Origin: a virus
Reading direction: 5' to 3' (one strand)
IMG/VR virus record: IMGVR_UViG_3300045988_160259
Location: 64,001 to 128,000 of that record
DNA: 64,000 nt
Below the pieces are notes generated by a model. That model was not told the origin of the DNA and did not search any database. It saw nothing but the letters and a program-made list of their open reading frames with translations. Shown one piece after another: positions 1,340-54,464 of this stretch. The number at the start of each line of letters is the position of its first letter. The stretch's first letter is position 1. The translations under genes and the position numbers were made by a program.

Positions 1340-1355
1340 TGAAAGAGAAATTTCA
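1340..1355 (+). repeat. junction hairpin TGAAA-N6-TTTCA
   Basis: TGAAAgagaaaTTTCA, 13 nt upstream of ATG 1369. Confidence 0.7.
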
Positions 1356-1368
1356 GAAAGGGAGAATA

Positions 1369-1596
1369 ATGGTTAAGTTTGATTTTTATGCAATATATGT
1401 TGAAACAAGCGAAAGAAGTGGTGAAGTTGTAGATGTGTTTTCTTCTTTCGAAGAATGCATGGGACATCGGATGGAGCACGCTAATTGGTTCCGTCCGAAG
1501 GGTGACATATGGATTTTACATATCAACAACGGAAAGAACTTTAGACCATCTGAAAAATGGTATGTAAACGCAGATGGCTCAGTTGAAAGCTACTAA
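1369..1596 (+). CDS. hypothetical protein (75 aa)
   Basis: ORF 1318-1596 trimmed to ATG preceded by gggagaata. Confidence 0.6.
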   Translation: MVKFDFYAIYVETSERSGEVVDVFSSFEECMGHRMEHANWFRPKGDIWILHINNGKNFRPSEKWYVNADGSVESY

Positions 1597-1613
1597 GATT
1601 GGAGGACTAAATC

Positions 1614-1838
1614 ATGGCAAAAGAATTTATTTACAGCAAGACAAGAGAAATTGGAACTATTGGTAAAAACACAGTAGAAATCGGACATTACACTGTTGAT
1701 GGCAAAGAAATGCCTGATAAGGTATACATGGTCACGAAGTTTTCACGGAAAGATGGAACTGAAAGCACGAAGGCAACTGCGATCTGTAGTGTGGTAGACG
1801 CAAATGAACTTGGCAAGCTGCTGATGAAGGTAAAGTAA
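1614..1838 (+). CDS. hypothetical protein (74 aa)
   Basis: ORF; SD ttggagga upstream. Confidence 0.65.
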   Translation: MAKEFIYSKTREIGTIGKNTVEIGHYTVDGKEMPDKVYMVTKFSRKDGTESTKATAICSVVDANELGKLLMKVK

Positions 1839-1851
1839 GGGGGAATACATA

Positions 1852-2073
1852 ATGGAAAACTGGATTAAGAAAATGAATGAGATGTTCGAAGCAAATGAGT
1901 ATACGGATGATAAGAGAGTGACCGTAGATTATTGTGAAAACGCAAAATGTATTCTTGTCAATGTTTGCGGAAATACGGTTGTTATCAAAGCTCTTGATAG
2001 ATTCAATGACTTCGGTTTAATGATGAAATGTATTGCAACAGTTCGGAATCTTTATGAACCTTATAATGATTAA
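1852..2073 (+). CDS. hypothetical protein (73 aa)
   Basis: ORF; SD aaggggga upstream. Confidence 0.65.
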   Translation: MENWIKKMNEMFEANEYTDDKRVTVDYCENAKCILVNVCGNTVVIKALDRFNDFGLMMKCIATVRNLYEPYND

Positions 2074-2081
2074 AATACAGT

Positions 2082-2118
2082 AAGGCAGGTAGAGAATAAT
2101 AATCTATCTGCCTTATTT
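2082..2118 (+). terminator. stem-loop, AAGGCAG...CTGCCTT family
   Basis: 12-bp stem 2082-2093 / 2103-2114 (one G-U), loop gaataataa, followed by atttaa. Confidence 0.5.
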
Positions 2119-2134
2119 AATTGGAGAAAAAAAG

Positions 2135-2374
2135 ATGACAAAACGACAGGAAGAAATTATTAAAGATAACTTGCGGTCTTATAAGGCAAACTTCGATTTT
2201 ATTGAAATTGAAGATGCTGATTATGGTAGTGGATTTTATGTTTTTACCAGCGAAGAGAGAGCAAAAAACAGAGATTGGGCGCAGTATTGTTATAACATTG
2301 ATTACTTGAATGGTTGGTTGTACGGATGTGTCCAGGCTGCAAATGGGGTTATGAAGAGAAAACAGGAGATCTAA
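2135..2374 (+). CDS. hypothetical protein (79 aa)
   Basis: ORF; SD tggag upstream. Confidence 0.65.
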   Translation: MTKRQEEIIKDNLRSYKANFDFIEIEDADYGSGFYVFTSEERAKNRDWAQYCYNIDYLNGWLYGCVQAANGVMKRKQEI

Positions 2375-5241: not shown

Positions 5242-5388
5242 ATGAAGAGAAATAAACCACGGTGGAAAAATCTTGATATGTGGGAACGGTTAGCAAGAAG
5301 ATGTAAGCAGAACGGAGCTTCTGAAGATACTGTCGAACATATCAGAGAGCATGGAAAACAGAGAGAAATCGAAAAAATTAATAAATGA
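5242..5388 (+). CDS. hypothetical small protein (48 aa)
   Basis: Hand-translated MKRNKPRWKNLDMWERLARRCKQNGASEDTVEHIREHGKQREIEKINK; SD gggagaggtg upstream; below ORF-track cutoff. Confidence 0.5.
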   Translation: MKRNKPRWKNLDMWERLARRCKQNGASEDTVEHIREHGKQREIEKINK

Positions 5389-5401
5389 AATATTAGTTTC
5401 A
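5386..5401 (+). repeat. junction hairpin TGAAA-N6-TTTCA
   Basis: TGAAAtattagTTTCA; TGA is the stop of 5242-5388. Confidence 0.7.
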
Positions 5402-7345: not shown

Positions 7346-7573
7346 ATGATTTGTATGTTAATTAAACAAGTAGGGGCAGGATATGAAGTTGATGGTCAGT
7401 TTATGGGATATGGAAACAGGAACATTATAGAAGCATTTGCGATGGAAGGAATTGACCTTAAAAAAGAAATGAACGATATGAAAATCGGAGAAGTGAAAGT
7501 TTGGAATATTGGCTGGTATCCAAATGATCGGATTCATAGAAGATATTTACCAGGAGAATTAGCAACCTGTTAA
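7346..7573 (+). CDS. hypothetical protein (75 aa)
   Basis: ORF; SD tggagga upstream. Confidence 0.6.
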   Translation: MICMLIKQVGAGYEVDGQFMGYGNRNIIEAFAMEGIDLKKEMNDMKIGEVKVWNIGWYPNDRIHRRYLPGELATC

Positions 7574-7630
7574 AAGAACGATTTCAAGAACGGAAGATGG
7601 AGAAATATATAAATAGAAAGGAATAAAAAT

Positions 7631-8261: not shown

Positions 8262-8468
8262 ATGATGTTACGGTATGGAGAAAAATTAGATTTAGACAAA
8301 AATCTTTGGGACGCAATCGTCACATATATGAATGATGATATTCGAGAAGATGTGCATTTTGATCTTGCGCCATGTAGTGAAGAAGAATTCCTCGCTGCAT
8401 ACGCGAAGAGAGATCCGGAATTTGAAAAACTGCTGCATGAAGAGTTTGGAATAGAAATGGAGGAGTAA
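8262..8468 (+). CDS. hypothetical protein (68 aa)
   Basis: ORF; SD aaaggaga upstream. Confidence 0.6.
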   Translation: MMLRYGEKLDLDKNLWDAIVTYMNDDIREDVHFDLAPCSEEEFLAAYAKRDPEFEKLLHEEFGIEMEE

Positions 8469-8826: not shown

Positions 8827-8896
8827 TTATTTAAAATAATATAATGGACGTATAATGTAAAGAAATGCGTGTTTCATTGGAAAGGAAAGGTAAGAT

Positions 8897-9472
8897 ATGA
8901 GTAGAAAGTATGATATTAGAATTTGTAAATGTGGACGGATTCATGCTATCCCAAATGAGAGGATTGAAAAGGCATTAGATGCTGATAAAAACTTCCTTCT
9001 TATTTGTGCAGCATGTGGAAATGCAACTCTGATTGGTGCAGATATTTCGCCTGATTGGGACGATCCATCAAAAGATTGTTATGAAATGTATTCGGCAGAT
9101 TTTTCTTCATACGAAGATAAAGTAATCAATACAGATACATTTAAGGAAAATGAGAAAGAAAAGGCAGTAGAAGAAATTTTTTACAGTCACGGGATCAAAG
9201 TTCCTATGAAAACAGGTCAGTATGCAACAGACTACTTTAACGGCAGATTTTCTGATAGATGGTATCCTGATTTTTATAAAATTCAGAGAACGGATATTAC
9301 AGTAAAGGAAATCATGGACTTTATTGATGAATATATACACGACAGAACTACAGTAAATATGAATAGATTTATCAATGAAACACCCGACGATGTACTTGAC
9401 GAGTTATCCAATTATCTGATTGATGGGTTAGATTGGAAGGGAACTAAATTTGAAAAAGAGTGGCACAAGTAA
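8897..9472 (+). CDS. hypothetical protein with N-terminal CxC/CxxC cluster (191 aa)
   Basis: ORF; SD aaaggaaagg upstream. Confidence 0.7.
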   Translation: MSRKYDIRICKCGRIHAIPNERIEKALDADKNFLLICAACGNATLIGADISPDWDDPSKDCYEMYSADFSSYEDKVINTDTFKENEKEKAVEEIFYSHGIKVPMKTGQYATDYFNGRFSDRWYPDFYKIQRTDITVKEIMDFIDEYIHDRTTVNMNRFINETPDDVLDELSNYLIDGLDWKGTKFEKEWHK

Positions 9473-9511
9473 GAAATTCGCATTTCTTTAGAAGATTAGA
9501 GGAGACGATAT

Positions 9512-9796
9512 ATGTTAGGATATAAAATCTATTTCAATGGAAACGAATTTGTAGCAGATAATACTGCAATGGAAGTTCAGAATATGCCATTTGATTCAAC
9601 TACGATGTGGTTTGCGAACAAGAAATCCGCAAATGATGCCGTAGAAAAGTATAATGCAAATGATTTAAAAGATGTCAAAAAATGTAAGGAATGCGGAGAA
9701 TATTTTTGGCAAACAGATGAAGAAAGAATATGGTTTACTGATAGGAATATGAAAGCTCCTTGCAGATGTTATTCTTGCAGAAAAAAGAAACACTGA
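9512..9796 (+). CDS. hypothetical zinc-ribbon protein (94 aa)
   Basis: C-terminal CKECG...CRCYSCR; SD agaggag upstream. Confidence 0.65.
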   Translation: MLGYKIYFNGNEFVADNTAMEVQNMPFDSTTMWFANKKSANDAVEKYNANDLKDVKKCKECGEYFWQTDEERIWFTDRNMKAPCRCYSCRKKKH

Positions 9797-9808
9797 AATC
9801 GAATTTCA
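9794..9808 (+). repeat. junction hairpin variant TGAAAT-N3-ATTTCA
   Basis: TGAAATcgaATTTCA; TGA is the stop of 9512-9796. Confidence 0.7.
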
Positions 9809-9827
9809 AAGGAAAGGAAAGAAAACG

Positions 9828-9995: not shown

Positions 9996-10037
9996 CAATG
10001 AAACTAAGATTTCTTAGTATGATTGGAGGTAAATAAG

Positions 10038-11930: not shown

Positions 11931-11946
11931 TGAAACAAGATTTTCA
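11931..11946 (+). repeat. junction hairpin TGAAA-N6-TTTCA
   Basis: aTGAAAcaagatTTTCAt upstream of ATG 11972. Confidence 0.7.
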
Positions 11947-13506: not shown

Positions 13507-13671
13507 ATGACATTTAATAATGCAAAAGGATTACATAACGAAGATGAAGTGACTATTAAAGAAACAGGTGAAGTTGTAACTGTATTACAAACTTACCAAT
13601 CGGAGAATGGAAAATATATTATTTTAGAATGTGACGATGGTAATAACTATTATAATGAAAAAGTAAAATGA
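13507..13671 (+). CDS. hypothetical small protein (54 aa)
   Basis: SD ttggaga upstream; MTFNNAKGLHNEDEVTIKETGEVVTVLQTYQSENGKYIILECDDGNNYYNEKVK; TGA stop lies in a junction hairpin. Confidence 0.5.
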   Translation: MTFNNAKGLHNEDEVTIKETGEVVTVLQTYQSENGKYIILECDDGNNYYNEKVK

Positions 13672-13684
13672 AACGATGATTTCA
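13669..13684 (+). repeat. junction hairpin TGAAA-N6-TTTCA
   Basis: TGAAAcgatgaTTTCA; TGA is the stop of 13507-13671. Confidence 0.7.
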
Positions 13685-14488: not shown

Positions 14489-14504
14489 TGAAACGTAGAT
14501 TTCA
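14489..14504 (+). repeat. junction hairpin TGAAA-N6-TTTCA
   Basis: TGAAAcgtagaTTTCA, 3 nt after stop 14483-14485. Confidence 0.7.
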
Positions 14505-15675: not shown

Positions 15676-15855
15676 ATGAAAATAAAAGATTTATTAGAAG
15701 TACTAAATACTGATAGCGTTGTTCTTGCAAGAGAAAATGATATTCTTGTTGATTGTGAAACACCATATATAAATCAGGCACTTAGAGAATATATGGATGA
15801 AGAAATCGAGAGAATAACACCATTAAACAATGCAATAGAAATTATATTGAAATGA
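15676..15855 (+). CDS. hypothetical protein (59 aa)
   Basis: ORF 15658-15855 trimmed to ATG after SD ggtggagg. Confidence 0.55.
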   Translation: MKIKDLLEVLNTDSVVLARENDILVDCETPYINQALREYMDEEIERITPLNNAIEIILK

Positions 15856-15881
15856 CAGTTTAAAAAGGAGAGTAGATAAGA

Positions 15882-16547: not shown

Positions 16548-16565
16548 TTGAAACGGAAATTTCAA
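16548..16565 (+). repeat. junction hairpin TTGAAA-N6-TTTCAA
   Basis: TTGAAAcggaaaTTTCAA immediately after stop 16545-16547. Confidence 0.7.
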
Positions 16566-17481: not shown

Positions 17482-17985
17482 ATGGAGATTTCATATTTAG
17501 AATCGGAGACTGATTTTATGATTAAATTTATAGAAAAAGAAAGATATTATGATGATAGTCCATATACAGGAAGTTGCTATTATTACCCTACATATATGGT
17601 AAAAGATGGAGAAGAATTCTTTGTATTCAATCGAAGAGAACCTGACGATGAATGGAAGATAAAAGAGGACAAGGCAAGAAAGAATCAGTTGATAGAAAAC
17701 GAAGGGAAATATTTTAAATTTAACGGATTTTATAATAATCCACTAGAAATGTTGAAGGAGATTATTGAAAGAAAACATCATTTTACAACGCCAAAGGACA
17801 TGTACTATGGTAATTTAGATATACATAGATATATAGATTTCCATGGTAATAGAAATGAAGTTAGTGCAGCTTTCCATTATAGAATTTATGATATAGAGTT
17901 AGCATGTACAATTCAAAAAGTTGTCAAGCTAATCAATAGTGAAGATTGGAACATGGCAAAAGCAATATTGAATAAAAGACAATGA
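17482..17985 (+). CDS. hypothetical protein (167 aa)
   Basis: ORF; no clear SD. Confidence 0.65.
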   Translation: MEISYLESETDFMIKFIEKERYYDDSPYTGSCYYYPTYMVKDGEEFFVFNRREPDDEWKIKEDKARKNQLIENEGKYFKFNGFYNNPLEMLKEIIERKHHFTTPKDMYYGNLDIHRYIDFHGNRNEVSAAFHYRIYDIELACTIQKVVKLINSEDWNMAKAILNKRQ

Positions 17986-18013
17986 AAAGCACATTTTATT
18001 AGGAGGTAGAGTT

Positions 18014-18463: not shown

Positions 18464-18715
18464 GTGAAACAGTATACAATATATGTTTGTGAGACATGCG
18501 GATATGAGAGCAAAGATGCTAAAGAAATTATGCAACATGAAGCAGATCATCTAGGTCTTACAGTTAAAGAAATGGAACAATATAGAGCTTTGAAGTCTTT
18601 TGCAAATTATATGGGTTCTGTTGTATCACATACAAAAAATGAAGCAACAGATAAAGCATTCGATGATGCAATTCAGAATTTATTGGATTTTGAAAAAGAG
18701 CATGGAATTAAATGA
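18464..18715 (+). CDS. hypothetical zinc-finger protein (83 aa)
   Basis: GTG start after SD gaggtg; YVCETCGYESKDAKEIMQHEADH resembles a C2H2 finger. Confidence 0.6.
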   Translation: MKQYTIYVCETCGYESKDAKEIMQHEADHLGLTVKEMEQYRALKSFANYMGSVVSHTKNEATDKAFDDAIQNLLDFEKEHGIK

Positions 18716-18742
18716 AAAATACATTTTTAGGAGATGTATCTT

Positions 18743-19968: not shown

Positions 19969-20055
19969 ATGGTTATGATAAGGCAAAGATGTAACAAATG
20001 TGAAAGACATCTTTATTCTGCAAATAACATGCGATTTTGTATATGGTGTATTTGA
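19969..20055 (+). CDS. possible micro-protein (28 aa, CxxC...CxxC)
   Basis: Strong SD aaggaggt upstream; MVMIRQRCNKCERHLYSANNMRFCIWCI. Confidence 0.35.
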   Translation: MVMIRQRCNKCERHLYSANNMRFCIWCI

Positions 20056-20370: not shown

Positions 20371-20398
20371 TGTATATACAACGTAGGAGGTCTAAAAA

Positions 20399-21100: not shown

Positions 21101-21116
21101 TGAAACAAGGATTTCA
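21101..21116 (+). repeat. junction hairpin TGAAA-N6-TTTCA
   Basis: TGAAAcaaggaTTTCA, 17 nt upstream of ATG 21134. Confidence 0.7.
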
Positions 21117-21991: not shown

Positions 21992-22243
21992 ATGGAAAAA
22001 TTATTAAAAGAGGTAGAAGAACTTAATGCTAATGTACCGGATGGTATTTTAAAAGATGCGGATACAATTCTTGTAGATATGGTTCAAGAAAATGACTTCG
22101 AGATCACAGGGATTGCGCAGGATATTTTTAATATTTGGAGAAACAGTTCGGACAAGAAAGCAGTTGAGCAGATGTTCTTTGAGTTTACAGATATGGAATT
22201 TAAAGATTTTCTTGAAAAATGCAAAAAAGAAATAACACGATGA
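21992..22243 (+). CDS. hypothetical protein (83 aa)
   Basis: ORF; SD aaagga upstream. Confidence 0.65.
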   Translation: MEKLLKEVEELNANVPDGILKDADTILVDMVQENDFEITGIAQDIFNIWRNSSDKKAVEQMFFEFTDMEFKDFLEKCKKEITR

Positions 22244-22269
22244 AAGCACATTTTGTTAGGAGGTAAATT

Positions 22270-28966: not shown

Positions 28967-29572
28967 ATGTTAGATGCAATAGAGTTTAAAGCCGATAGGT
29001 TTAAAAAAAGAAGATAATTATAATCTGATTGAATTTACCGAAAACACAGTTATTTTGTGTAGTGATTACAAACTTATGGATACACTAACGAAAGAAATAA
29101 TCAATACAGTGAATGGTAAAGCAGAATATAACGATTATTACTGTGATGATGAAGACGAGGGGGAAAGCAAAATTAGATTTATGTTTTGGTTTACAGCGAA
29201 TAATTGATATAAATGGACAGAAGATTACAATTGGTCTGGAGCCAGCAATCATTTACAAAGCAAATAAACCAGAAGACATATGGCTTTTTTACTTAGCAAG
29301 GATGTGATGAGATTGAATCATTTCCTAAATATGAAGAATATATTTACCCTATGTTGATATTTAAAGGTAGTAAAAGTACATGGAACGATGGCAAGGATGC
29401 TGTATACCAAACTATATGTAATGGAAGATATGGTTGTTATAATGGAAAATGGATTGATTTTGCCGAAAAATTATTTTACGAAGAAACAGCGAAAAGATTT
29501 TTCGATCAGATGAATATAAATTCTAATGAAACCAAGTTTTCATGTGGAGTGGAAAGGAGAATATATAAATGA
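28967..29572 (+). pseudogene. gene interrupted by successive +1 frame changes (intact-looking 3' part is ORF 29351-29572)
   Basis: ATG 28967 with SD agaggtg stops at 29015 just after an A7 run (29003-29009). Protein-like sequence continues in the +1 frame to 29207, again +1 to 29307, and again +1 into ORF 29351-29572, which has no SD of its own. Confidence 0.35.
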
Positions 29573-29775: not shown

Positions 29776-29817
29776 AATAAGAAATCTAAGTTTCAAGACA
29801 AGAAAGGAAATTATGAG

Positions 29818-32221: not shown

Positions 32222-32269
32222 AATGAGGTAAATGAAAAATTGCTTTCATGGGAAAAGAAGGATGAAAAT

Positions 32270-32527: not shown

Positions 32528-32543
32528 TGAAAGATTGTTTTCA
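32528..32543 (+). repeat. junction hairpin TGAAA-N6-TTTCA
   Basis: TGAAAgattgtTTTCA, 3 nt after stop 32522-32524. Confidence 0.7.
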
Positions 32544-33997: not shown

Positions 33998-34051
33998 AAT
34001 AAATTAAACGTATAATAGATGAAAGATTGTTTTATAGGAGAGAATAGAAAT

Positions 34052-35107: not shown

Positions 35108-35138
35108 ATAAAACAGACATTTCAGAAAGGAAATAAGA

Positions 35139-35674: not shown

Positions 35675-35695
35675 ATTGCACCTCCGTGTGAAATG

Positions 35696-35829: not shown

Positions 35830-35871
35830 GAGTTCAACGTAAGAAAACAAGAGAGAAAGGAGGAACCGGGT

Positions 35872-37722: not shown

Positions 37723-38433
37723 ATGAGATACAAGTATTTAACAGAGACTCAAATAGAGAAATTAGAATCTCTTACGCCAGAAGAAGCAGAAAAAATTCAG
37801 CAAACGTATTTAGATGATGATATGCGTGAGCTTAAAAAAATCTGCAAAACTTTGATTTACAAAAAGAAAAAATCATCGCAGGATTTACCGACACTTCATG
37901 ATGCAGAACTTGAAAGCCTAGCAGTAGAAGTTTTTCTGTCAAGTTTACTCAAATATAATTCGGATGTCAAATGCACTTTTAAAACGTATTTATATGGAAA
38001 TATTTGGAGAAAATATTGGACATATACAAGAGATATCGAACGTAAAAAACGCTGTGTTTTTGTTCCAGATATTGATGAAGAAACTGGCAAGCAAAAAGTT
38101 GACAAAGAAGGAAATCCTAAAGAGAAGCCTGTATTTGATATCTCCATATATTCTCAAATCGATGAAAATGGAATGCAACTCTGGGAAACATTTGTATCTG
38201 GAAAAACCGTGGAAGATGTCGTCTTTCAAAATGATCAAGAAATGTCATCTGCGATGAGAGAATATACTAATAAGTTATCAAGAGTACAGAGTGTAATTTT
38301 ACATATGCTTGCAGATGGATTTAATGAAGAAGAAATTCTTCAGAATTTACATATTTCTAAGTCACTCTATAACGATAGCTTAAAAGCTATCCGGAACAAC
38401 TCAAATACAAGAATACTTAGGAGGGATTATTAA
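37723..38433 (+). CDS. sigma-70-family (ECF-like) RNA polymerase sigma factor
   Basis: Region-2-like LESLAVEVFLSSLLKYNSDVKCTFKTYLYGNIWRKYWTYTRD and region-4 HTH LSRVQSVILHMLADGFNEEEILQNLHISKSLYNDSLKAIRNN. Start moved from GTG 37714 to ATG after SD aaggtgg. Confidence 0.6.
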   Translation: MRYKYLTETQIEKLESLTPEEAEKIQQTYLDDDMRELKKICKTLIYKKKKSSQDLPTLHDAELESLAVEVFLSSLLKYNSDVKCTFKTYLYGNIWRKYWTYTRDIERKKRCVFVPDIDEETGKQKVDKEGNPKEKPVFDISIYSQIDENGMQLWETFVSGKTVEDVVFQNDQEMSSAMREYTNKLSRVQSVILHMLADGFNEEEILQNLHISKSLYNDSLKAIRNNSNTRILRRDY

Positions 38434-40452: not shown

Positions 40453-40644
40453 ATGAAAAGGTTAGGAAAATATTCTGGAAAGGTTTACGAAGAACATGAG
40501 ATCCAGAATATGGATGAATGTGGAACAGTAATTACAGACGAACAGGCTGCAGATAAGGACTTTATTAAAAAACATCACATGTGTGATTTGGTACGGTGTG
40601 TATCATGCTTTGGTGTCCGACATCGAAGAGTTTCTTCTGAATGA
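40453..40644 (+). CDS. hypothetical protein (63 aa)
   Basis: ORF 40444-40644 trimmed to ATG after SD agaggtg. Confidence 0.55.
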   Translation: MKRLGKYSGKVYEEHEIQNMDECGTVITDEQAADKDFIKKHHMCDLVRCVSCFGVRHRRVSSE

Positions 40645-40657
40645 AAGACTGATTTCA
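40642..40657 (+). repeat. junction hairpin TGAAA-N6-TTTCA
   Basis: aTGAAAgactgaTTTCAt; TGA is the stop of 40453-40644, the last gene before the CRISPR locus. Confidence 0.7.
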
Positions 40658-40668: not shown

Positions 40669-40716
40669 ATACTATATATAGTGGTCGAGCAAAAATAAAA
40701 CCACTATATATAGTAT
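40669..40716. repeat. perfect 17-bp inverted repeat (hairpin/palindrome) upstream of the CRISPR array
   Basis: AATACTATATATAGTGG 40669-40685 pairs with CCACTATATATAGTATT 40700-40716; 14-nt loop tcgagcaaaaataa; no U-run after it. Confidence 0.8.
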
Positions 40717-42938: not shown

Positions 42939-43059
42939 GTCATGCGATTTAACATGCTTAAAAATGAGGTCGGAAATGGTTCCCGACGCACTCTGCAAAG
43001 AGTACCTGAGATGATGGATACGCCGCCCATCCATTTTTAGGCATTTCAAATCGCATGAC
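42939..43059 (+). ncRNA. structured non-coding element (multi-stem RNA or attenuator) downstream of the iscB locus
   Basis: Closing 12-bp helix GTCATGCGATTT 42939-42950 / AAATCGCATGAC 43048-43059. Inner hairpins: GTCGG..CCGAC, ACTCT-GCAA-AGAGT (GNRA loop), and ATGGAT-acgccgccc-ATCCAT followed by TTTTT. An alternative pairing of TAAAAATG 42959-42966 with CATTTTTA 43032-43039 competes with the terminator-like hairpin. Confidence 0.45.
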
Positions 43060-43127
43060 TGAAATATAAAACGCGATGAAAGGCACATTTCTTTAGAGAA
43101 TATATAAACAGAAAGAAGGAGTAAAAC

Positions 43128-43580: not shown

Positions 43581-43586
43581 TGAAAT

Positions 43587-44627
43587 ATGAGTTTCAAAGT
43601 AGGAGATATTGTAAGAGTTAAGGATTATAAAGACATTGATTGTTCTACTTTTGTGCCAAGTATGAAATGTTACTGTGGGCATAAATATATCATAACTGAA
43701 ATAACATTGTATTTTGATGGTAGTGCATATAAGTTAAATTGCGGTGCGGATTTTATATTTGAAGAAAAGTGTCTTGAAAAAGTTGTTGCAAACTTTGACT
43801 CAGGAAATAAAAATGATACATTTACATTCAACGCTAAAAAGGAGAACAAAGAAATGAGAAAACAGGAAGTAGGATTAACACAGAGGGAACGTATTGAAAA
43901 CAAAATGGAAGAGTATATCTATAAGTCTGGTGTATGCTCTGTCAATATCATCGTACCAAATCGAGTGGTGGAAGTGAATTTCGATGGTGATTTTTGGAAG
44001 AAAGTAAAAACAGTATGCGACAAAAATGATATCTTCTCTCTTGAAAGAGCATTATACATCGCATACGCAAAACGACAATATAATGACGTGTATACGACAG
44101 AAGGTATTGAGAAGCAAGCTGATGAGTTTAAATATAGAAAAATTTATGTATCTAAAGTCAAGAACGCTCTGAAAGTATATGAATGTCAGCAGAAGCTCGC
44201 TGCATTAGATAAAGAAGAGGAAGAAATTAAACTTCGTCAGAAACAGAAACGTCATGAGAGAAATGAACGACGTCGTGCAAGAAGAGCAGAAGAAGCAACT
44301 AAAAAAGAAGAAGAGAGAAGAAATGAACAGATTGCAATTCAGAAAGAAGCATATCTTCAGGCAATGATGGCGTTTGAAGAAGGAAAAAAGAAACTCGAAT
44401 CTAAAAAAGAAGAGGAAGAAAAACAGACCAAATCAACAAAAGAAATCGTAAAAAAGGTTGAAAAACTGATTTCTGATGCAGAGAATACTACAGAAGATAC
44501 AAAGGAAAATAAAGAACCAGAAAAAGCAGATGTAGTTGGTGAAAATAATAAAGAAGAAAGTTCGGAGAATAATGTAAAAGAAGAAACAACCAATAAGATG
44601 AAGAAAACAGAGAGCAAAGTAGAGTAA
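43587..44627 (+). CDS. hypothetical protein with Lys/Glu-rich C-terminal half (346 aa)
   Basis: ORF; SD gtggaggag upstream; the C-terminal 150 aa are low-complexity, charged and coiled-coil-like. Confidence 0.75.
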   Translation: MSFKVGDIVRVKDYKDIDCSTFVPSMKCYCGHKYIITEITLYFDGSAYKLNCGADFIFEEKCLEKVVANFDSGNKNDTFTFNAKKENKEMRKQEVGLTQRERIENKMEEYIYKSGVCSVNIIVPNRVVEVNFDGDFWKKVKTVCDKNDIFSLERALYIAYAKRQYNDVYTTEGIEKQADEFKYRKIYVSKVKNALKVYECQQKLAALDKEEEEIKLRQKQKRHERNERRRARRAEEATKKEEERRNEQIAIQKEAYLQAMMAFEEGKKKLESKKEEEEKQTKSTKEIVKKVEKLISDAENTTEDTKENKEPEKADVVGENNKEESSENNVKEETTNKMKKTESKVE

Positions 44628-47186: not shown

Positions 47187-47423
47187 ATGACGCAAGAAGA
47201 ACACGATCGAAAAATTCTTATTGAACGAGCAGCTGTAGAAGAACTTTTACTAAAAGAACATATTAGTGTTCCTACAGCGTATGAACGGGCCAGAGAATTG
47301 GAATACGAGAGAAAGAAATCTCTCTATTGGATGTGTCGATGCGATGGCACAGTAGCAGACGATGTATCGTTTGATGATTGGATAAAGAAATTTGATCAAG
47401 TAAGAGAGGAGAATAAACTGTGA
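47187..47423 (+). CDS. hypothetical protein (78 aa)
   Basis: ORF 47178-47423 trimmed to ATG after SD aaggtg. Confidence 0.6.
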   Translation: MTQEEHDRKILIERAAVEELLLKEHISVPTAYERARELEYERKKSLYWMCRCDGTVADDVSFDDWIKKFDQVREENKL

Positions 47424-47932
47424 AAACATTAATTGTTGTAGATGTACAGAATGATTTCGTAAATGGGAGCCTTGGATCGGAAGAAGCACAGGCGATCATT
47501 CCGAATGTAAAAAAGAAAATTGAGGAGTATTACAATCGTGGAGATCAAATTATCTTTACAAGAGATACGCATTATGACGATTACTTAAATACTCCGGAGG
47601 GAAGAAAACTTCCAGTAAAACATTGTATTTTTGGAACAAATGGATGGAAGGTTGTGAGCGACCTTGTGGTTCCTAACTGCAGATATGTAAACAAAAGTAC
47701 TTTTGGAATTTTGCAGTGGAGAAATATGACATGGATTGGAGATGGTGGTATCGATCTGGTCGGTTTGTGTACGGATATATGTGTAATTTCAAATGCATTA
47801 GTACTTAAAGCTATGTTTCCAAATACGGAAATTACAGTAGACGCAGGCTGTTGCGCGGGATCTACACCAGAGAGACATAAGGCAGCACTCGAAGTTATGA
47901 AAAGTTGCCAGATTAATGTGATTGGAGAATAG
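47420..47932 (+). CDS. pncA: isochorismatase-family hydrolase, probable nicotinamidase (PncA-like)
   Basis: KTLIVVDVQNDFVNGSLG (catalytic Asp), NKSTFG (Lys), VGLCTDICV (Cys); GTG start overlapping the previous stop. Confidence 0.7.
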   Translation: MKTLIVVDVQNDFVNGSLGSEEAQAIIPNVKKKIEEYYNRGDQIIFTRDTHYDDYLNTPEGRKLPVKHCIFGTNGWKVVSDLVVPNCRYVNKSTFGILQWRNMTWIGDGGIDLVGLCTDICVISNALVLKAMFPNTEITVDAGCCAGSTPERHKAALEVMKSCQINVIGE

Positions 47933-47936
47933 AGAT

Positions 47937-48752
47937 ATGATTACTTTAAATAGTAAAGAAGTAAAAGTAGAACACTTTCCAGATGGAACACAGAGAATCG
48001 TACTAGATGATTGTTTTTATCAGAAATATAACAACATTACATGGAAGTATGAAAAAGAAGAAGAACTTTCAACGCTGATTTATATTACAAAACATTTAAA
48101 AAATTTTCCATATATTAAATCAATTGATCTTACAATGTTTTATCTTCCGAATGCCAGAATGGACAGAATCTATGATCATGGCGAGGTTTTTACATTAAAA
48201 GGGTTCGCTGATGTTATTAATTGGCTCGAATTTGATAGAGTAGAGGTACTTGATGTTCATAGTAATGTTGGAGCAGCGCTTTTGAATAGAGTATATGTCT
48301 TTAATCCAAGAGAATATATTGATGAAGTAATTGAGCAGATTAGTAAAGAAAATCTTATTCTTTATTTTCCGGATGCCGGTAGTTCGAAAAGATATTCTGG
48401 ATTGTTTTCTGACATTCCGTATTGCTATGGTGAGAAAAATCGAGATTGGAATACAGGAAAAATTCTTGGACTCAAAATCAGAGATAACGGTATTGATCTT
48501 AAGGGTAAAAAAGTTTTGATGATTGATGACATCATTTCATATGGCGGTTCTTTATATTATAGTGCAAAAGCGTTGAAAGAACGTGGCATAGATAGAATTT
48601 ATGCTTATGCATCACATACCGAAAATTCAGTTCTTGATAGAGAAAAAGGAACATTAATCAAATCACTTGATGATGGAACAGTTGAAAGATTATTTACGAC
48701 AAATAGTCTTTTTACAGGAAAACATGAAAAGATCACAGTTATGGAGGTCTAA
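47937..48752 (+). CDS. ribose-phosphate pyrophosphokinase (Prs)-like protein; candidate ADPR-pyrophosphate synthetase (Adps) of NARP1
   Basis: N-terminal FPDGT..I and C-terminal GKKVLMIDDIISYGGSLYYSAKALKERGIDRIYAYASHT (PRTase/Prs nucleotide-binding loop). Start moved to ATG after SD ggagaata. Confidence 0.65.
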   Translation: MITLNSKEVKVEHFPDGTQRIVLDDCFYQKYNNITWKYEKEEELSTLIYITKHLKNFPYIKSIDLTMFYLPNARMDRIYDHGEVFTLKGFADVINWLEFDRVEVLDVHSNVGAALLNRVYVFNPREYIDEVIEQISKENLILYFPDAGSSKRYSGLFSDIPYCYGEKNRDWNTGKILGLKIRDNGIDLKGKKVLMIDDIISYGGSLYYSAKALKERGIDRIYAYASHTENSVLDREKGTLIKSLDDGTVERLFTTNSLFTGKHEKITVMEV

Positions 48753-48753
48753 T

Positions 48754-50226
48754 ATGAGAAACATTTCTTTTATGCTGATGGCAGACACATATAAAAATAC
48801 AAATCCAGATGCTCTTCCGGCAGGTCTTACAAAATTAACTTCCTATATTACTCCAAGAAAGTCAATGTTTAAAAATCTGAATGAAGTAGTGTTCTTTGGA
48901 TTACAGGGCTTTATTAAGGAATATATGATTGAATTAGCAAACGAAACGTTCTTCAAAAGACCAAAAGAAGAGGTTGTTGCTGAGTACAAAAAATACTTAG
49001 ATAATCAGATCGGTTCCCAGAGCTATGATCTTGGACGTATCGAAAAATTATGGGATCTGCAGTATTTACCTGTAGAGATCAAAGCTCTTCCAGAAGGATC
49101 TGTTGTAACAATGGGAGTCCCGTGTATCGAGATGAGTAACGCACATCCGGATTTCGCATGGACGGTACAATGGCTGGAATGCATTATGCAGTCTTTTATT
49201 TTTGGGACATGCAACTGGGCAACTGTAGGTCATAAATATAAAACACTTGCAAATGAATTTTACGAGAAAACTACAGATGGTGCTAATCCTGCAATGGCTA
49301 TGGCGGATTTTGGATTCAGAGGACTCGGCATTGAGAACGGAGTTCATGCAAGTTCTTCATGGCTGCTATCTTTCAATAAAACTTCTACAATTCCTGCAAC
49401 TCAGTATATTGATAAAATGTACGATGCGGATTGTGTTAAGAACCATATTGGTATTGGAGCAGTTAGCCTGGAACATGCAACCGTATGCAGTAATCTGGCT
49501 GTATGCGAGACAGAAGAAAATCTGTTAAGAAGATTACTGATTGATACATATAAGAATACATCTTTCAGTTATGTCTCTGATACATTTGATTACTGGAACC
49601 TTATTGACGAAACACTTCCAAAACTGAGAAAAGAAATTGAAGAGCATAATGGTAAATTCCTTGTACGTCCTGATAGCGGCGATATCGTTGAGATTTCAGT
49701 AAAAACTGTTCAGAAATTATATCAGCTTTTTGGTGGAACTGTAAACTCAAAAGGTTATAAGGAGTTAAATCCAAAAATTGGAATCATTTACGGAGATGGT
49801 TGTCAGTACAGTAAGATCAAAGAGATTTGGACACAGCTTGAAGGATTAGGATTTGCAGCAGATACGATTCTTTTTGGAGTAGGTGCGTTTTCTTTCTCTG
49901 CAATGTGTACGCCAGAAGATGGAATGGTTTGCTTAACAAGAGATACTTTTGGATTTGCAATGAAGAGCACCTATTGTGTAATTGATGGCAAAGAATATAC
50001 CATTCAGAAGAATCCAAAAACAGATAAAAATAATTTAAAGAAATCACATAAAGGTCTTTGCCGTGTTGTGAAAGAAGGTAATAATTTTGTATGCCATGAT
50101 GGATATACAGAAGATACGATTCCAGAAGAAAATGAATTAAAACTTATCTTTAAAAATGGAGAATTAGTAAAAGAGCAGACATTTGGAGAAATCAGAGAAA
50201 GACTGAATGGAGAAAGCTATGATTGA
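48754..50226 (+). CDS. nicotinamide phosphoribosyltransferase (NAMPT/NadV)-family protein; candidate Namat of NARP1
   Basis: LMADTYK, MADFGFRG, LVRPDSGD, IIYGDG and LFGVG are NAMPT-family motifs. Start moved to ATG after SD tggaggt (ORF track 48667). Confidence 0.75.
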   Translation: MRNISFMLMADTYKNTNPDALPAGLTKLTSYITPRKSMFKNLNEVVFFGLQGFIKEYMIELANETFFKRPKEEVVAEYKKYLDNQIGSQSYDLGRIEKLWDLQYLPVEIKALPEGSVVTMGVPCIEMSNAHPDFAWTVQWLECIMQSFIFGTCNWATVGHKYKTLANEFYEKTTDGANPAMAMADFGFRGLGIENGVHASSSWLLSFNKTSTIPATQYIDKMYDADCVKNHIGIGAVSLEHATVCSNLAVCETEENLLRRLLIDTYKNTSFSYVSDTFDYWNLIDETLPKLRKEIEEHNGKFLVRPDSGDIVEISVKTVQKLYQLFGGTVNSKGYKELNPKIGIIYGDGCQYSKIKEIWTQLEGLGFAADTILFGVGAFSFSAMCTPEDGMVCLTRDTFGFAMKSTYCVIDGKEYTIQKNPKTDKNNLKKSHKGLCRVVKEGNNFVCHDGYTEDTIPEENELKLIFKNGELVKEQTFGEIRERLNGESYD

Positions 50227-50725
50227 GATTATTGAAGGAAATTTATTTGATACAGATGCAAAATTTATTTGTCATCAGGTAAATTGTATGGGAAAGATGG
50301 GATCTGGCGTGGCTTTGCAGGTCAGACAGCGATTTCCACATGTATACGAAGAATATAAAAAGGTAGCATCATCGGATATGCTAGGGAAAGTACAAATTGT
50401 ACCAGTCAAGCCAAAATATATTGGATACGACTGTGGATCGATTGCGATTCCAAGTAATGAACAGTGGATTTGTAATTTCTTTGCACAAGATAACTATGGA
50501 TATGACGGAAAACAATATACTTCTCTGGAAGCATTAGAAAAGTGTTTTAGAACTATGTGTTGGAAAGCACATGAAAAGAACAATAATTTTAGTGCAACAA
50601 TTGCTATGCCATATAAGATCGGCTGTGATCGTGGTGGAGCAGATTGGGACGAAGTATATTCAATGATGCAGAAGATTTTTAATGAACTTGATACTCATGT
50701 TGAACTGTGGAAATTAAATCAGTAG
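50219..50725 (+). CDS. macro-domain (ADP-ribose binding/processing) protein
   Basis: IEIIEGNLFDTDAKFICHQVNCMGKMGSGVALQVRQRFP follows the macro-domain N-terminal pattern (G.l......ai.h..N..g.mG.GvA); alternative start 50207. Confidence 0.65.
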   Translation: MIEIIEGNLFDTDAKFICHQVNCMGKMGSGVALQVRQRFPHVYEEYKKVASSDMLGKVQIVPVKPKYIGYDCGSIAIPSNEQWICNFFAQDNYGYDGKQYTSLEALEKCFRTMCWKAHEKNNNFSATIAMPYKIGCDRGGADWDEVYSMMQKIFNELDTHVELWKLNQ

Positions 50726-50742
50726 AGGAGAGGAGAATAGAT

Positions 50743-51501
50743 ATGTATACTTTTGATGCAAAAGAAACAAAAAATAAGATTGTCGAGTGGATTAAAATGT
50801 TCTTTGAGCAGAATGGGAAAGATTGTATTGCCACAGTAGGTCTTTCAGGGGGTAAAGATTCAAGCATTGTTGCGGCTCTCTGTGTGGAAGCTCTTGGAAA
50901 GAATAGAGTTTTAGGTGTGCTCATGCCAGACGGAGAACAGACAGATATTGAAGATGCCTATGAAGTTGCTAAACATTTAGGTATTGAATACTGTACTGTA
51001 GATATTCATCCAGCAATTCTTGCGCTAAAGCACGAAATCAGACCACAAATTGGTGATCATTGGTCAAAACAGACATCAATTAATCTGCCTCCTCGAATCA
51101 GAATGGCAACACTTTATGCAATTTCACAGAGTATGAATGGACGAGTCGCTAATACATGCAATCTTTCGGAAACACTCTTATCTTGGGAAACTCGCTGGGG
51201 CGATGCAGTAGGAGACTTTGCACCATTAAAGGATTTCACAGTACAGGAAGTAAAAGCTATTGGATATGAGACGATTCTACTGAAAAAGATGGTTGACAAA
51301 ACGCCGTCAGACGGATTATGTGGATCTTCTGATGAAAGCGCTCTTGGATTTAAATATTCTGTATTCGATCGGTATGCAAGAACAGGTGAAATTGATGATT
51401 CTGCAGTAAAAGCTATTATCGATGCAAGGGTTGAAAAATACAGATTCAAGAGAAGACCAATTCCATATTTTGAAAGTGGTCTGAAATCATATTTAGACTG
51501 A
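50743..51501 (+). CDS. nadE: NH3-dependent NAD+ synthetase
   Basis: PP-loop VGLSGGKDSSIVAAL, RIRMATLYAISQ, NLSE...WGD..GDFAPL, and C-terminal KYRFKRRPIPYF as in NadE. Start moved to ATG after SD gaggagagga. Confidence 0.8.
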   Translation: MYTFDAKETKNKIVEWIKMFFEQNGKDCIATVGLSGGKDSSIVAALCVEALGKNRVLGVLMPDGEQTDIEDAYEVAKHLGIEYCTVDIHPAILALKHEIRPQIGDHWSKQTSINLPPRIRMATLYAISQSMNGRVANTCNLSETLLSWETRWGDAVGDFAPLKDFTVQEVKAIGYETILLKKMVDKTPSDGLCGSSDESALGFKYSVFDRYARTGEIDDSAVKAIIDARVEKYRFKRRPIPYFESGLKSYLD

Positions 51502-51945: not shown

Positions 51946-52195
51946 GATTATCGAGGAAGATTTCGAATGTCTTGATGGACATATAACAAAAGCGTTGACA
52001 TTCGATAAAGACAATGTATATAAAATTTCGGACTTTATCGAACTACTACAGAAAGCGATGGAGAAATATGGTGATAAAGAAATTGCTATACATGATATGA
52101 ATTTTGACGTTATTTCAGGGATTTCATGGCCCTATATTTATTTTGATGAGACTTCAGGTGTCGATAATAATGGTATGATTTGTATTTTTGAATAG
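51938..52195 (+). CDS. hypothetical protein (85 aa)
   Basis: ORF 51884-52195 trimmed to ATG after SD gaggag. Confidence 0.6.
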   Translation: MNKIIEEDFECLDGHITKALTFDKDNVYKISDFIELLQKAMEKYGDKEIAIHDMNFDVISGISWPYIYFDETSGVDNNGMICIFE

Positions 52196-52208
52196 GAGAA
52201 AAGAAAAT

Positions 52209-52934
52209 ATGAAAACTCAAATTAGAATGGGTGTGTTTGAATCAAATTCATCAAGTATGCATTCGCTTTGCGTGATAAAAAATGAAGGTAAATATACTCC
52301 ACAAGAAATTACTCATGATATGTGGTTATGGGATGATTCAAAAACAGGAGAGAAAAATTGTATTTGGATACCATATGAGGAAGATTTATATTTTGGAAGA
52401 TCTCCATTTAGGGCATTAGCAAGTTTTTCTGATAAATGGCTATATGCTTGTGCTTCGTTGGTTGAAGAATATAATGATGATACATATAAAGAATTATTAC
52501 GAATTGTTAAGAAATATGTGCCGACATTAAAGAAAATTGAACTTCCAAAAAAATGTAAATATATTCCGAATAAAGATAACGAAGAATATAATGCAGACAA
52601 TTATTACCAGGAAGGAATGACGGAAGAAGAGTTAAACAAGTTTCTTTCTGACAAAGAAGAACAATATGGAATTGAAATTAATTATTGGACTGATTCAGAA
52701 AATGAATCCTGGAGATTCAATATTCCAGATACTGGTTCTGTGGATGAAGATATCCTTAGTGGATTTTTAAAAAAAGAGAATATCACATTAGAAGAGTTTA
52801 TTTCTAACAAAAAATATGTAGTAATTCAGGATGGAGATGAAACATGCTATTTTTCTGGAATGAAAGAAGCAGGTTTAATCAATATGAATGCAATTGATCA
52901 TGAATATCCAGAAGGGGAATGGTGGGAAAGATGA
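52209..52934 (+). CDS. hypothetical protein (241 aa), paralog A with MKTQIR.G.FE.NSSS.HSL N-terminus
   Basis: ORF 52188-52934 trimmed to ATG after SD taggaga; N-terminus MKTQIRMGVFESNSSSMHSLCV. Confidence 0.7.
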   Translation: MKTQIRMGVFESNSSSMHSLCVIKNEGKYTPQEITHDMWLWDDSKTGEKNCIWIPYEEDLYFGRSPFRALASFSDKWLYACASLVEEYNDDTYKELLRIVKKYVPTLKKIELPKKCKYIPNKDNEEYNADNYYQEGMTEEELNKFLSDKEEQYGIEINYWTDSENESWRFNIPDTGSVDEDILSGFLKKENITLEEFISNKKYVVIQDGDETCYFSGMKEAGLINMNAIDHEYPEGEWWER

Positions 52935-53329
52935 AAACACAAATTAGAAAAGGAACATTTGAAACAAATAGTAGCTCGGTTCACTCGCTCGTGATGTGTA
53001 ATAAAAGCGATTATGATAAATGGGAACAAGGAAAAGTATTTCTATTTAGAGGAAGTGGCTATGCTTATCCAGATGGCAACAAACCTCAAGTAAATCATTT
53101 TTATACAAAAGAAGAAGCAATCACCTTTGAAAAATCTAGCAAGTATCATCCAAATTTTACATACGACACAGAAGGAGATCTTTTGGATTTTCTTCATGAA
53201 AATGAATGGTATGATTATGATTATTTTTGGAATGAATGGTGCGAAGATTGGGAAACTTTTGAAGAATCGTTCACAACAGAGAATGGGGACACTGTTATCG
53301 CGTTCGGTTATGACGGTTATGATGGCTGA
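52931..53329 (+). CDS. hypothetical protein (132 aa), paralog B with MKTQIR.G.FE.NSSS.HSL N-terminus
   Basis: ORF 52919-53329 trimmed to ATG (ATGA overlap); N-terminus MKTQIRKGTFETNSSSVHSLVM. Confidence 0.7.
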   Translation: MKTQIRKGTFETNSSSVHSLVMCNKSDYDKWEQGKVFLFRGSGYAYPDGNKPQVNHFYTKEEAITFEKSSKYHPNFTYDTEGDLLDFLHENEWYDYDYFWNEWCEDWETFEESFTTENGDTVIAFGYDGYDG

Positions 53330-53353
53330 TAAAATTTAGGAGGAATTGTGAGA

Positions 53354-54250
53354 ATGGAATTATTAGGAGCATATAGAAATGGAAATTATCGTACTCTTAT
53401 AATGGATGACGGAACAAAAATCAGAAGGACAAACGATGACGATTTTATTCCTGATTTTGCGGAAAATATTGATATCAAAATAACTAATAAATGTAACATG
53501 AATTGTCCTATGTGCCATGAAGGAAGTACGGAAAATGGCAGACATGGAGATATTATGAATGAAAAATTTATCGATACTCTACATCCATATCAAGAAGTCG
53601 CAATCGGCGGAGGTGATATTACCACGCATCCTGATTTAATTCCATTCCTACAAAAACTTAAAGAACGAAAAGTAATTGCGAATATTACTGTAAATCAGAT
53701 TCATTTTGAACAAAAACAGGATCTGATCAAAAGATTAGTTGATGGAAAACTGATCTATGGTCTTGGTATATCTCTTGTAAATCCAACAGAAAAATTCATC
53801 TCCTTGGTAAAGCAGTATCCAAATGCAGTAATCCATGTTATTAATGGAATTTTAAAACCATCTGATATTGAAGCATTAGGGAATAATAATCTGAAGATGC
53901 TGATCTTGGGCTATAAGCAGCTTCGTAGAGGGACTGATTGGTATACAGAAGATCATGAAAATATTGTAGTAAGACAGATGTGGTCGAAAGAGAACATCTG
54001 TAACATTTACGACAAATTCAAAGTTGTGTCCTTTGACAATCTAGCCATCGAACAGCTTAATATGCGATGTTTCTTTACGGACAAAGAATGGGAAGAATTT
54101 TACATGGGCGATGATGGAAATTTTACTTACTATATTGACATGGTAGAAAGAAAATTTGCAAAAAGTTCAACAGCGCCAATGGATAAAAGATATGATCTGA
54201 TAGATTCTACAGATGAGATGTTTAGGCGAATTGTGACAGAGAATAAATGA
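53354..54250 (+). CDS. radical SAM enzyme
   Basis: CNMNCPMC (CxxxCxxC 4Fe-4S motif) in KITNKCNMNCPMCHEG near the N-terminus; alternative GTG start 53348 after SD taggagg. Confidence 0.7.
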   Translation: MELLGAYRNGNYRTLIMDDGTKIRRTNDDDFIPDFAENIDIKITNKCNMNCPMCHEGSTENGRHGDIMNEKFIDTLHPYQEVAIGGGDITTHPDLIPFLQKLKERKVIANITVNQIHFEQKQDLIKRLVDGKLIYGLGISLVNPTEKFISLVKQYPNAVIHVINGILKPSDIEALGNNNLKMLILGYKQLRRGTDWYTEDHENIVVRQMWSKENICNIYDKFKVVSFDNLAIEQLNMRCFFTDKEWEEFYMGDDGNFTYYIDMVERKFAKSSTAPMDKRYDLIDSTDEMFRRIVTENK

Positions 54251-54263
54251 AATCGAAATTTCA
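54248..54263 (+). repeat. junction hairpin TGAAA-N6-TTTCA
   Basis: aTGAAAtcgaaaTTTCAt; TGA is the stop of the radical SAM gene. Confidence 0.7.
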
Positions 54264-54277
54264 TCTGGTGAAAAATT

Positions 54278-54448
54278 ATGGAAAAAGTTATAAATGGTTA
54301 CAAAATCGAAGAAATTGCCTTAAATCCAACATATTTAACAGATGATGATCTAAAAAGCCTTAAAAATCAAGGATTTAGAGTACGCTGGATGAGAGAAAAC
54401 GAAGATGGCGATAAAAATATATTTATGATAACGGTTGACAAAAACTAA
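54278..54448 (+). CDS. hypothetical small protein (56 aa)
   Basis: MEKVINGYKIEEIALNPTYLTDDDLKSLKNQGFRVRWMRENEDGDKNIFMITVDKN; SD ggtga upstream; below ORF-track cutoff. Confidence 0.5.
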   Translation: MEKVINGYKIEEIALNPTYLTDDDLKSLKNQGFRVRWMRENEDGDKNIFMITVDKN

Positions 54449-54464
54449 TGAAATGTTGTTTTCA
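54449..54464 (+). repeat. junction hairpin TGAAA-N6-TTTCA
   Basis: aTGAAAtgttgtTTTCAt directly after stop 54446-54448. Confidence 0.7.

Follow-up and report, generated by a model that had tools for sequence, protein, structure and literature searches.

Why should one short palindrome stand again and again between the genes of a large phage, and is it read there as DNA or as RNA? The question is raised by a 64,000-nucleotide (nt) stretch of the viral record IMGVR_UViG_3300045988_160259 (positions 64,001 to 128,000; hereafter the window), in which TGAAA-N6-TTTCA recurs at gene junctions. A preliminary description of this DNA had counted 12 perfect copies and proposed either an RNA hairpin or a DNA operator. 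Our analysis confirms the enrichment and extends it to a large phage family, and it adds to that description that the palindrome is a cassette boundary and crossover point. We tentatively explain the motif as a duplex DNA site for a symmetric dimer, placed at cassette boundaries, which would probably act on transcription and would double as a crossover point; taken as a whole, this explanation seems plausible, if a little short of probable.

Copies of the palindrome in the window and in related phages

TGAAA-N6-TTTCA occurs 16 times in the 64 kb of the window, compared with a mean of 0.60 and a largest count of 3 in 100 dinucleotide-preserving shuffles of the same DNA. Chance or base composition as the source of the motif is ruled out by these shuffles together with the spacing controls given below, and the earlier judgement that the copies are not due to chance was right. 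All 12 copies counted before were found again in place, and four were added (29527, 32233, 43581 and 62135). With gene starts picked by their Shine-Dalgarno (SD) sequence, 15 of the 16 perfect copies are intergenic, though about 89% of the window codes. The earlier claim that all copies are intergenic therefore holds for these 15 and fails for 43581, one of the added copies, which is possibly a chance or decayed one. The perfect copies are as follows.

1340..1355, perfect copy, 13 nt before ATG 1369
5386..5401, perfect copy, supplies the TGA stop of gene 5242-5388; CAGAGAATAAT and a hairpin come next
11931..11946, perfect copy, precedes an SD and ATG 11972; the cassette includes a serine recombinase gene
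13669..13684, perfect copy, supplies the TGA stop of gene 13507-13671; 14 nt separate it from ATG 13699
14489..14504, perfect copy, immediately 3' of a TAA stop; 18 nt before GTG 14523
16549..16564, perfect copy, loop CGGAAA
19938..19953, perfect copy, supplies the TGA stop of gene 19647-19940; its 3' arm is immediately followed by the SD AGGAGG
21101..21116, perfect copy, 3' of the terminator 21042-21075; 17 nt before ATG 21134
29527..29542, perfect copy (added), preceded by TAA; 26 nt before ATG 29569
32233..32248, perfect copy (added), 12 nt past the stop 32221
32528..32543, perfect copy, 18 nt before GTG 32562
40642..40657, perfect copy, supplies the TGA stop of gene 40453-40644; a long non-coding stretch follows, no SD
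43581..43596, perfect copy (added), atypical and the only one not intergenic; its loop contains the ATG of gene 43587, and the SD is upstream
54248..54263, perfect copy, supplies the TGA stop of gene 53348-54250; 14 nt separate it from ATG 54278
54449..54464, perfect copy, immediately 3' of a TAA stop; then CAGAGAATAAT, an SD and ATG 54513
62135..62150, perfect copy (added), in a gap without a called gene

Thirteen copies in the window have one mismatch, and nine of them lie at gene junctions; if two-mismatch forms are included, degenerate copies are found at about 20 further junctions. The degenerate relatives described before at 7571, 9471/9472, 9999, 17983, 18713, 22241, 29780/29781 and 34020 are all present, as is the N5 variant at 9794.

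7571..7586, TAAAA..TTTCA, one mismatch, at a junction; TAA is the stop
8861..8876, AGAAA..TTTCA, one mismatch, at a junction, 20 nt before ATG 8897
9472..9487, AGAAA..TTTCT, symmetric double variant, the same form as the consensus of one sub-clade
9794..9809, TGAAA-TCGAA-TTTCA, N5 variant, among very few off-spacing copies
9999..10014, TGAAA..TTTCT, one mismatch, at a junction
15848..15863, TGAAA..TTTAA, one mismatch, at a junction
17983..17998, TGAAA..TTTTA, one mismatch, at a junction; TGA is the stop
18713..18728, TGAAA..TTTTT, two mismatches, at a junction; TGA is the stop
22241..22256, TGAAA..TTTGT, two mismatches, at a junction; TGA is the stop
29780..29795, AGAAA..TTTCA, one mismatch, at a junction
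34020..34035, TGAAA..TTTAT, two mismatches, at a junction
35109..35124, TAAAA..TTTCA, one mismatch, at a junction
43077..43092, TGAAA..TTTCT, one mismatch, between a skipping-rope RNA and gene 43128
59458..59473, TAAAA..TTTCA, one mismatch, at a junction; TAA is the stop

The window has a low GC content (about 32%), almost all of its genes lie on the + strand, and both of its ends match the metagenomic ENA contig ERZ27250497 k119_106364 (208,682 bp). Many relatives of about 100-216 kb are found in IMG/VR, with a sliding clamp identity of 89-98% in one clade and 55-57% in another. None of the cultured phages is close to the window at the DNA level; the phage collection gave Clostridioides phage pCD1602_4 as the best match by protein (60% identity), with Bacillus phages next. 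Cellular relatives of the clamp (25-29% identity) come from metagenome-assembled genomes of Lachnospiraceae only, and the motif is absent from them. In more than 90 related phage loci TGAAA-N6-TTTCA is the top-ranked palindrome of the 5-Nx-5 type, and it ranks first in both clamp clades, so that conservation in related phages, one of the checks that the preliminary description had proposed, came out in favour of the motif. Close relatives carry 3-9 copies per 21 kb, and in one sub-clade of the distant relatives the consensus is the symmetric form AGAAA-N6-TTTCT. No paper was found in a full-text literature search for the motif string.

Duplex DNA or folded RNA

The consensus reads r-A-TGAAA-y-N4-r-TTTCA, and its geometry is strict. 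The window together with 65 loci holds 159 copies with N6 spacing, against 3 with N4, 5 with N5, 8 with N7 and 20 with N8, and over 1.63 Mb the distinct sites number 174 for N6 and about five for each other spacing. The sequence between the arms is free: the perfect copies have 44 different spacers, and pairing between positions 6 and 11 was seen in 15 cases when 17.2 are expected, a complementarity not above chance. When single substitutions were scanned with the other spacings as background, an N6-specific excess was absent for every change at positions 3-5 and 12-14, A>G included (about 0). Tolerated changes are restricted to positions 1, 2, 15 and 16, where each has its mirror counterpart (T1>A 46 and A16>T 43; G2>A 21 and C15>T 33), and the double change TAAAA/TTTTA shows no excess within the phage family of the window. 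The fixed spacing, free spacer, invariant half-site cores and mirror-symmetric tolerance together suggest a site in duplex DNA that is bound by a symmetric dimer. Such a dimer would bind two inverted half-sites wGAAA(y) with a spacer of free sequence between them, the half-site centres being 11 bp, or one helical turn, apart. A cre/CcpA-type site was considered as well and rejected; a site of this type would need N4 spacing, and N4 copies number only three.

The motif could instead work in the polycistronic mRNA as a UGAAA-N6-UUUCA hairpin, either to couple or insulate translation or to signal the processing or stability of the transcript, which was the first of the two explanations in the preliminary description. 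It always lies in a transcribed gap directly 5' of an SD, with the upstream stop inside it in 26% of the sites, and its asymmetric 5' flank ties it to the gene strand. C15>T is a little more frequent than G2>A and would leave a G.U pair, and the arms remain complementary across lineages (AGAAA/TTTCT, and TAAAA/TTTTA in pCD1602_4), as would be predicted of an RNA hairpin too. However, the energy of the 5-bp stem is only -1.1 to -2.4 kcal/mol as RNA (about -1.1 with DNA parameters) and positive in pCD1602_4, the stem is never extended and no T-run follows it. Wobble-type A>G variants are absent at the three inner pairs, while G2>A is tolerated even though the 5-bp stem would then be interrupted midway by an A.C mismatch. 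Hairpins in RNA that are recognised by proteins have conserved loops and covarying stems, the opposite of the pattern seen here, where the loop length is fixed and the loop sequence free. The distance to the SD varies widely (0-12 nt), and Rfam gave no match at the motif sites. Motif-less junctions have no excess of other inverted repeats that could act as substitutes, and with this the idea of a hairpin before every SD was given up. Neither compensatory or wobble changes among the copies nor a thermodynamically credible stem, both expected of a functional RNA, was found, and we consider an RNA-level element unlikely. The DNA-operator explanation, the second one offered before, keeps its N6 geometry, free spacer, invariant cores and mirror tolerance; the motif is a member of neither the CRP/FNR nor the stoperator family, to which it had been likened, as discussed in the last section.

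An analogue in a different phage bears on the same point. Clostridioides phage pCD1602_4 (CP069348.1; loci L073-L075 in our set) has three proteins in common with the window and no more, and it is without TGAAA-N6-TTTCA; its top palindrome is TAAAA-N6-TTTTA, which has the same geometry and position as the window motif and differs from it by a symmetric change at positions 2 and 15. There are 17 copies in a 60-kb + strand block against 0-5 at other spacings, and in one 50-kb segment of the phage 12 copies compare with 2.7 in shuffles. Ten of the 17 stand directly 5' of an SD and ATG. Forced hairpins of these copies have energies of +0.7 to +1.8 kcal/mol, and RNA folding is not credible for them. 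The palindrome is mostly of the form TAAAAT-N4-nTTTTA (60-120 kb), is confined to the + strand gene block and falls to background level in the - strand half.

Transcription, cassette exchange and accessory genes

The position of the motif relative to stops and SDs was followed in the window and its relatives. The upstream stop codon is the TGA of the motif in 25 of 96 distinct sites (26%), and in 33 further sites of the 96 it lies 3-8 nt before the motif; frequent use of the motif TGA as the stop is to be expected of a TGA-containing motif that stands in a very short intergenic gap. The preliminary description had put such cases at six or more, and five perfect copies and three variants in the window bear this out. 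In 107 of 121 distinct sites the 3' arm is 12-26 nt from the start codon and 0-12 nt from a tetramer resembling an SD; in 27 of the 107 the SD begins 0-1 nt past the motif. The arm had been said usually to sit 13-25 nt ahead of the next start and immediately 5' of the SD, and this stands for the distance to the start. The distance to the SD is broad and not fixed. With such a broad distance, the motif and the SD look like independent elements that share one very short gap.

A motif that heads cassettes 12-26 nt before their start codons could also be a phage-specific promoter, giving each cassette its own start signal with transcription from just before the SD, as the T4 elements known as PeSLs (promoter-early stem-loops) do (PMC2839356). 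In addition to this analogy, some of the sites are followed by a second conserved element, GAGAATAAT, at a constant distance of 22 nt. A palindrome, however, has no direction, and neither a -10-like or -35-like flank nor another conserved promoter element at a fixed distance was found around the motif. An SD that begins 0-1 nt past the motif in 27 of 107 sites would leave almost no leader, and no gene for a sigma factor or RNA polymerase was found among about 70 window proteins scanned. A sigma-70-type promoter with ATGAAA as its -35 was rejected, since the implied start would be at or beyond the start codon and the -10 is not conserved. A promoter function is, in our judgement, very unlikely.

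A second recurrent motif, (A)ACGGAGAATAAT / CAGAGAATAAT, was noticed at 2092, 5408, 8203, 10367, 11225, 16577, 17219, 21083, 31496, 42928, 51610, 54471 and 60871. It stands alone, not as an SD plus spacer, occupies the loop of terminator-like hairpins at 2092 and 10367, and at 1340, 5386 and 54449 it begins exactly 22 nt after the palindrome does. It could be what is left of a ribosome-binding site, or else a promoter element peculiar to the phage.

The comparison with relatives places the palindrome at mosaic joints. Identical 16-mers, spacer included, are flanked by different genes in different relatives. Thus TGAAATATTAGTTTCA (window 5386) joins five upstream with two to three downstream contexts in ten combinations, and six of its quartets pass the four-gamete test, two upstream and two downstream contexts being present in every one of their four pairings; for TGAAACGGAAATTTCA (window 16549) the contexts number ten on either side. 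When only the upstream flank is shared, the 16-mer is identical in 162 of 176 junction pairs, and when only the downstream flank is shared, in 178 of 193. In 46 of 59 pairs of the former kind and 76 of 82 of the latter, the sequences cease to be homologous within 0-3 nt of the motif edge, and gene blocks that are inherited together have motif copies at their bounds. Motif junctions are broken in 73-81% of the comparisons with relatives against 47% for motif-less junctions, in counts that are not phylogenetically independent. As junctions with nothing else in common share only the palindrome, this is the place where related phages exchange cassettes by crossing over, as well as the cassette boundary.

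Such exchange could be the proper function of the site, if a phage recombinase bound the arms and the crossover took place in the 6-bp spacer, which would then serve as the address of the junction and allow slot-by-slot swaps, between sites of matching spacer, during co-infection. Identical 16-mers joining flanks combinatorially, with homology that stops at the motif edge on either side, would agree with this, as would the same spacer in more than 90% of the junction pairs that share one flank and the near absence of repeated spacers within a genome (1 in 513 sites). The window also has genes for a tyrosine recombinase (25628-26653), which is syntenic in the relatives, and for a serine recombinase. 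On the other hand, a conserved arm of 5-6 bp is short compared with known recombinase core sites, motif-less junctions are rich in breakpoints too, and some exchanges took place between sites of different spacer. Common descent with rare homologous or microhomology crossovers within 16 identical bases explains the spacers equally well, and slot-unique spacers would also be expected from shared synteny. The serine recombinase gene, for its part, is a cassette of variable presence: 11 of 25 close loci have it. A dedicated recombination site therefore appears rather improbable.

Under the explanation that we prefer, a symmetric dimer on duplex DNA, the site would lie at the 5' edge of accessory cassettes of one to four genes, between the prior stop and the next SD, in long same-strand gene arrays with few promoters. 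The bound protein would act on the transcription that traverses the array, as a roadblock or as a silencer of cassette expression, with a logic akin to that of mycobacteriophage stoperators and a symmetric site in place of theirs. Our best guess is a regulator of the roadblock or operator type, and the binding protein is probably phage-encoded.

Several observations weigh against this explanation. The flanks are not as symmetric as the arms, with A at position 0 in 81% and T at position 17 in 34% of the sites, which may come from the SD constraint on the 3' side, and the complementarity of the arms in lineage-level changes does not set the dimer apart from an RNA hairpin. In a consensus-based scan of the window and about 10 kb upstream, none of the strong sigma-A-type promoters (20322, 26808/27002, 35801, 36653 and position 7139 of locus L109) is overlapped by a copy, and no cluster of copies was seen in the 9.6 kb upstream of the window; lacking promoter overlap, the operator-plus-stoperator layout of L5 is not reproduced. 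Mosaic breakpoints are common at motif-less junctions also, and the motif is thus not required for shuffling. Among the DNA-binding proteins examined, no candidate could be linked to the motif. The Xre-type protein 35345-35674 is an unlikely binder, as it adjoins its own direct repeats over a perfect sigma-A-type promoter, a control region with repeats different from the palindrome. The LexA-like protein 24017-24280 (87 amino acids, a DNA-binding domain only) is 97-100% conserved in the close clade, exceeding the clamp, and its gene is always followed by two to three small open reading frames (ORFs), the tyrosine recombinase gene and a C5 DNA methylase gene (26905-27870). Its homologues of 74-79% identity differ in the presumed recognition helix in genomes that keep TGAAA-N6-TTTCA, and this co-occurrence leaves the protein unsupported as binder. 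Conserved small proteins near the clamp had no Pfam or PDB match suggesting DNA binding, and no domain of the CRP/FNR family was found among the scanned proteins, which are part of the genes of the window.

The window is a hyperplastic region rich in small accessory genes, many of which occur in only part of the close relatives. They include two MazF-type modules, an AcrIC5-like gene, genes for the salvage of nicotinamide adenine dinucleotide (NAD), Tpt1, a GmrSD-like gene, tyrosine and serine recombinases and the C5 methylase. The AcrIC5-like, Tpt1, GmrSD_N, PurA/PurZ-like and Lar genes likely serve counter-defence or nucleic-acid metabolism, and the PurA/PurZ-like gene possibly belongs to a 2-aminoadenine pathway.

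8262-8468, AcrIC5-like gene
34321-34863, Tpt1/KptA RNA 2'-phosphotransferase
38433-39935, GmrSD_N-domain protein
47420-51501, NAD cluster: isochorismatase-family (nicotinamidase-like) protein, phosphoribosyltransferase or phosphoribosyl pyrophosphate synthetase-like protein, nicotinamide phosphoribosyltransferase, macro domain, NAD synthase
56022-57122, adenylosuccinate synthetase, PurA/PurZ-like
62805-63026, Lar restriction alleviation protein

The NAD salvage and synthesis cluster has tight junctions, and the palindrome is absent from them. The MazE-MazF module (20322-21018) stands behind TTGACA-17-TATACT, flanked by the inverted repeat AACGGATATAC (20328) / GTATATCCGTT (20361), and at 35345-36243 the divergent Xre and PemK-like genes lie around a perfect TTGACA-17-TATAAT promoter, in a region with direct repeats ATAATAAAGATATGTT at 35774 and 35806. 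A skipping-rope RNA (RF02924) was found at 42959-43039 on the + strand (Rfam 74.9 bits, E 2.7e-16), in a 200-nt non-coding gap. At 40669-40716 there is a perfect hairpin with a 16-bp stem, ATACTATATATAGTGG ... CCACTATATATAGTAT, in a stretch of about 560 nt without a convincing gene, upstream of the gene of a 515-amino-acid HNH endonuclease (41202). Directly 3' of the palindrome at 19938, a mini-ORF (19969-20055) with a strong SD encodes 28 amino acids with two CxxC pairs (MVMIRQRCNKCERHLYSANNMRFCIWCI); it falls below the cut-offs of 35-50 amino acids used in ORF listing and gene calling. In one relative (locus L102, 9784-10902), an IS605-type OrfB/TnpB gene (Cas12f-like) is inserted directly after the gene of the LexA-like protein.

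Comparison with scattered operators and shuffling linkers

Stoperators are repressor-binding sequences present in more than 20 copies, at which the bound immunity repressor blocks elongation. In the cluster A mycobacteriophages (L5 gp71 and its relatives) they are 13-bp, asymmetric and orientation-dependent sites bound by a monomer (PMC9283540), which has two DNA-binding domains, and one copy doubles as the operator of the early promoter (PMC9283540, PMC6550527). The palindrome resembles them in that dozens of copies of one short sequence lie in short intergenic gaps of co-directional arrays (PMC9283540, PMC6550527), with a consensus that shifts among lineages. Its genome-spread copies pass the number of 20 (16 perfect and about 20 degenerate ones in 64 kb), and it has the same intergenic location (15 of 16 perfect copies). 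However, it is a symmetric 5-N6-5 palindrome and not an oriented 13-bp site, and no recognisable promoter, early or other, is overlapped by a copy in the consensus scan. The motif, symmetric as it is, is thus not a member of the stoperator family with its asymmetric monomer-bound site (PMC9283540). The putative hosts, unlike those of the stoperator phages, are low-GC Firmicutes. If a dimer does bind, the motif would represent a symmetric counterpart of stoperators beyond the actinobacteriophages and a genome-wide control in uncultured gut phages of about 100-216 kb, where one protein could switch tens of cassettes, among them toxin-antitoxin pairs, an anti-CRISPR-like gene, NAD-salvage genes and other counter-defence genes.

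The CRP site is TGTGA-N6-TCACA, the FNR half-site is TTGAT and the operator of phage 434 is ACAA-N6-TTGT; CRP and FNR sites are centred near -41.5 or -61.5 of a partner promoter. With the CRP and 434 operators the motif shares inverted half-sites one helical turn apart, a free centre and a mirror-symmetric tolerance, and the 5-N6-5 geometry of CRP and FNR sites is its own. Its half-site, in contrast, is TGAAA with the AAA invariant, and while CRP and 434 operators stand at defined positions in one or a few promoters, the motif is found at about 30 promoter-less junctions. The motif had been likened to CRP/FNR-type sites, and it is not a member of that family: the half-site is not TGTGA, no CRP/FNR protein was seen among the about 70 window proteins scanned, and no partner promoter was seen.

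The PeSLs of T4-type phages consist of a strong sigma-70 promoter and an effective terminator stem-loop within tens of bp (PMC2839356, PMC4122927). Like them, the palindrome is a short conserved intergenic motif in a hyperplastic region that marks points of gene exchange, gain and loss, although it has only 16 bp, a variable centre and no promoter hexamers, stable stem or T-run. Sites that coincide with mosaic joints give a testable handle on cassette exchange at gene boundaries, which could proceed by homology in conserved linkers, by protein-induced breaks or by true site-specific recombination. As a practical marker, the motif can moreover delimit cassettes and help to spot this phage family in metagenomes.

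The attC sites of integrons, 57-141 bp long, act as a folded single strand and travel with the upstream ORF, and heterospecific lox sites differ only in their spacer and permit cassette exchange. As in arrays of attC or lox sites, palindromes with conserved ends and variable centres lie here between promoter-less, co-directional small cassettes, a likeness that is not specific to integrons, and as in attC and lox/FRT exchange the cassettes turn up in new contexts. The motif, in contrast to attC, has 16 bp and is kept with whichever flank is shared. Should the palindrome nevertheless be a recombination site, it would be a natural, phage-borne case of recombinase-mediated cassette exchange that leaves the gene order unscrambled. 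On these comparisons, we assign the motif as a variant of two known classes, the scattered operator or stoperator arrays and the PeSL-like shuffling linkers.

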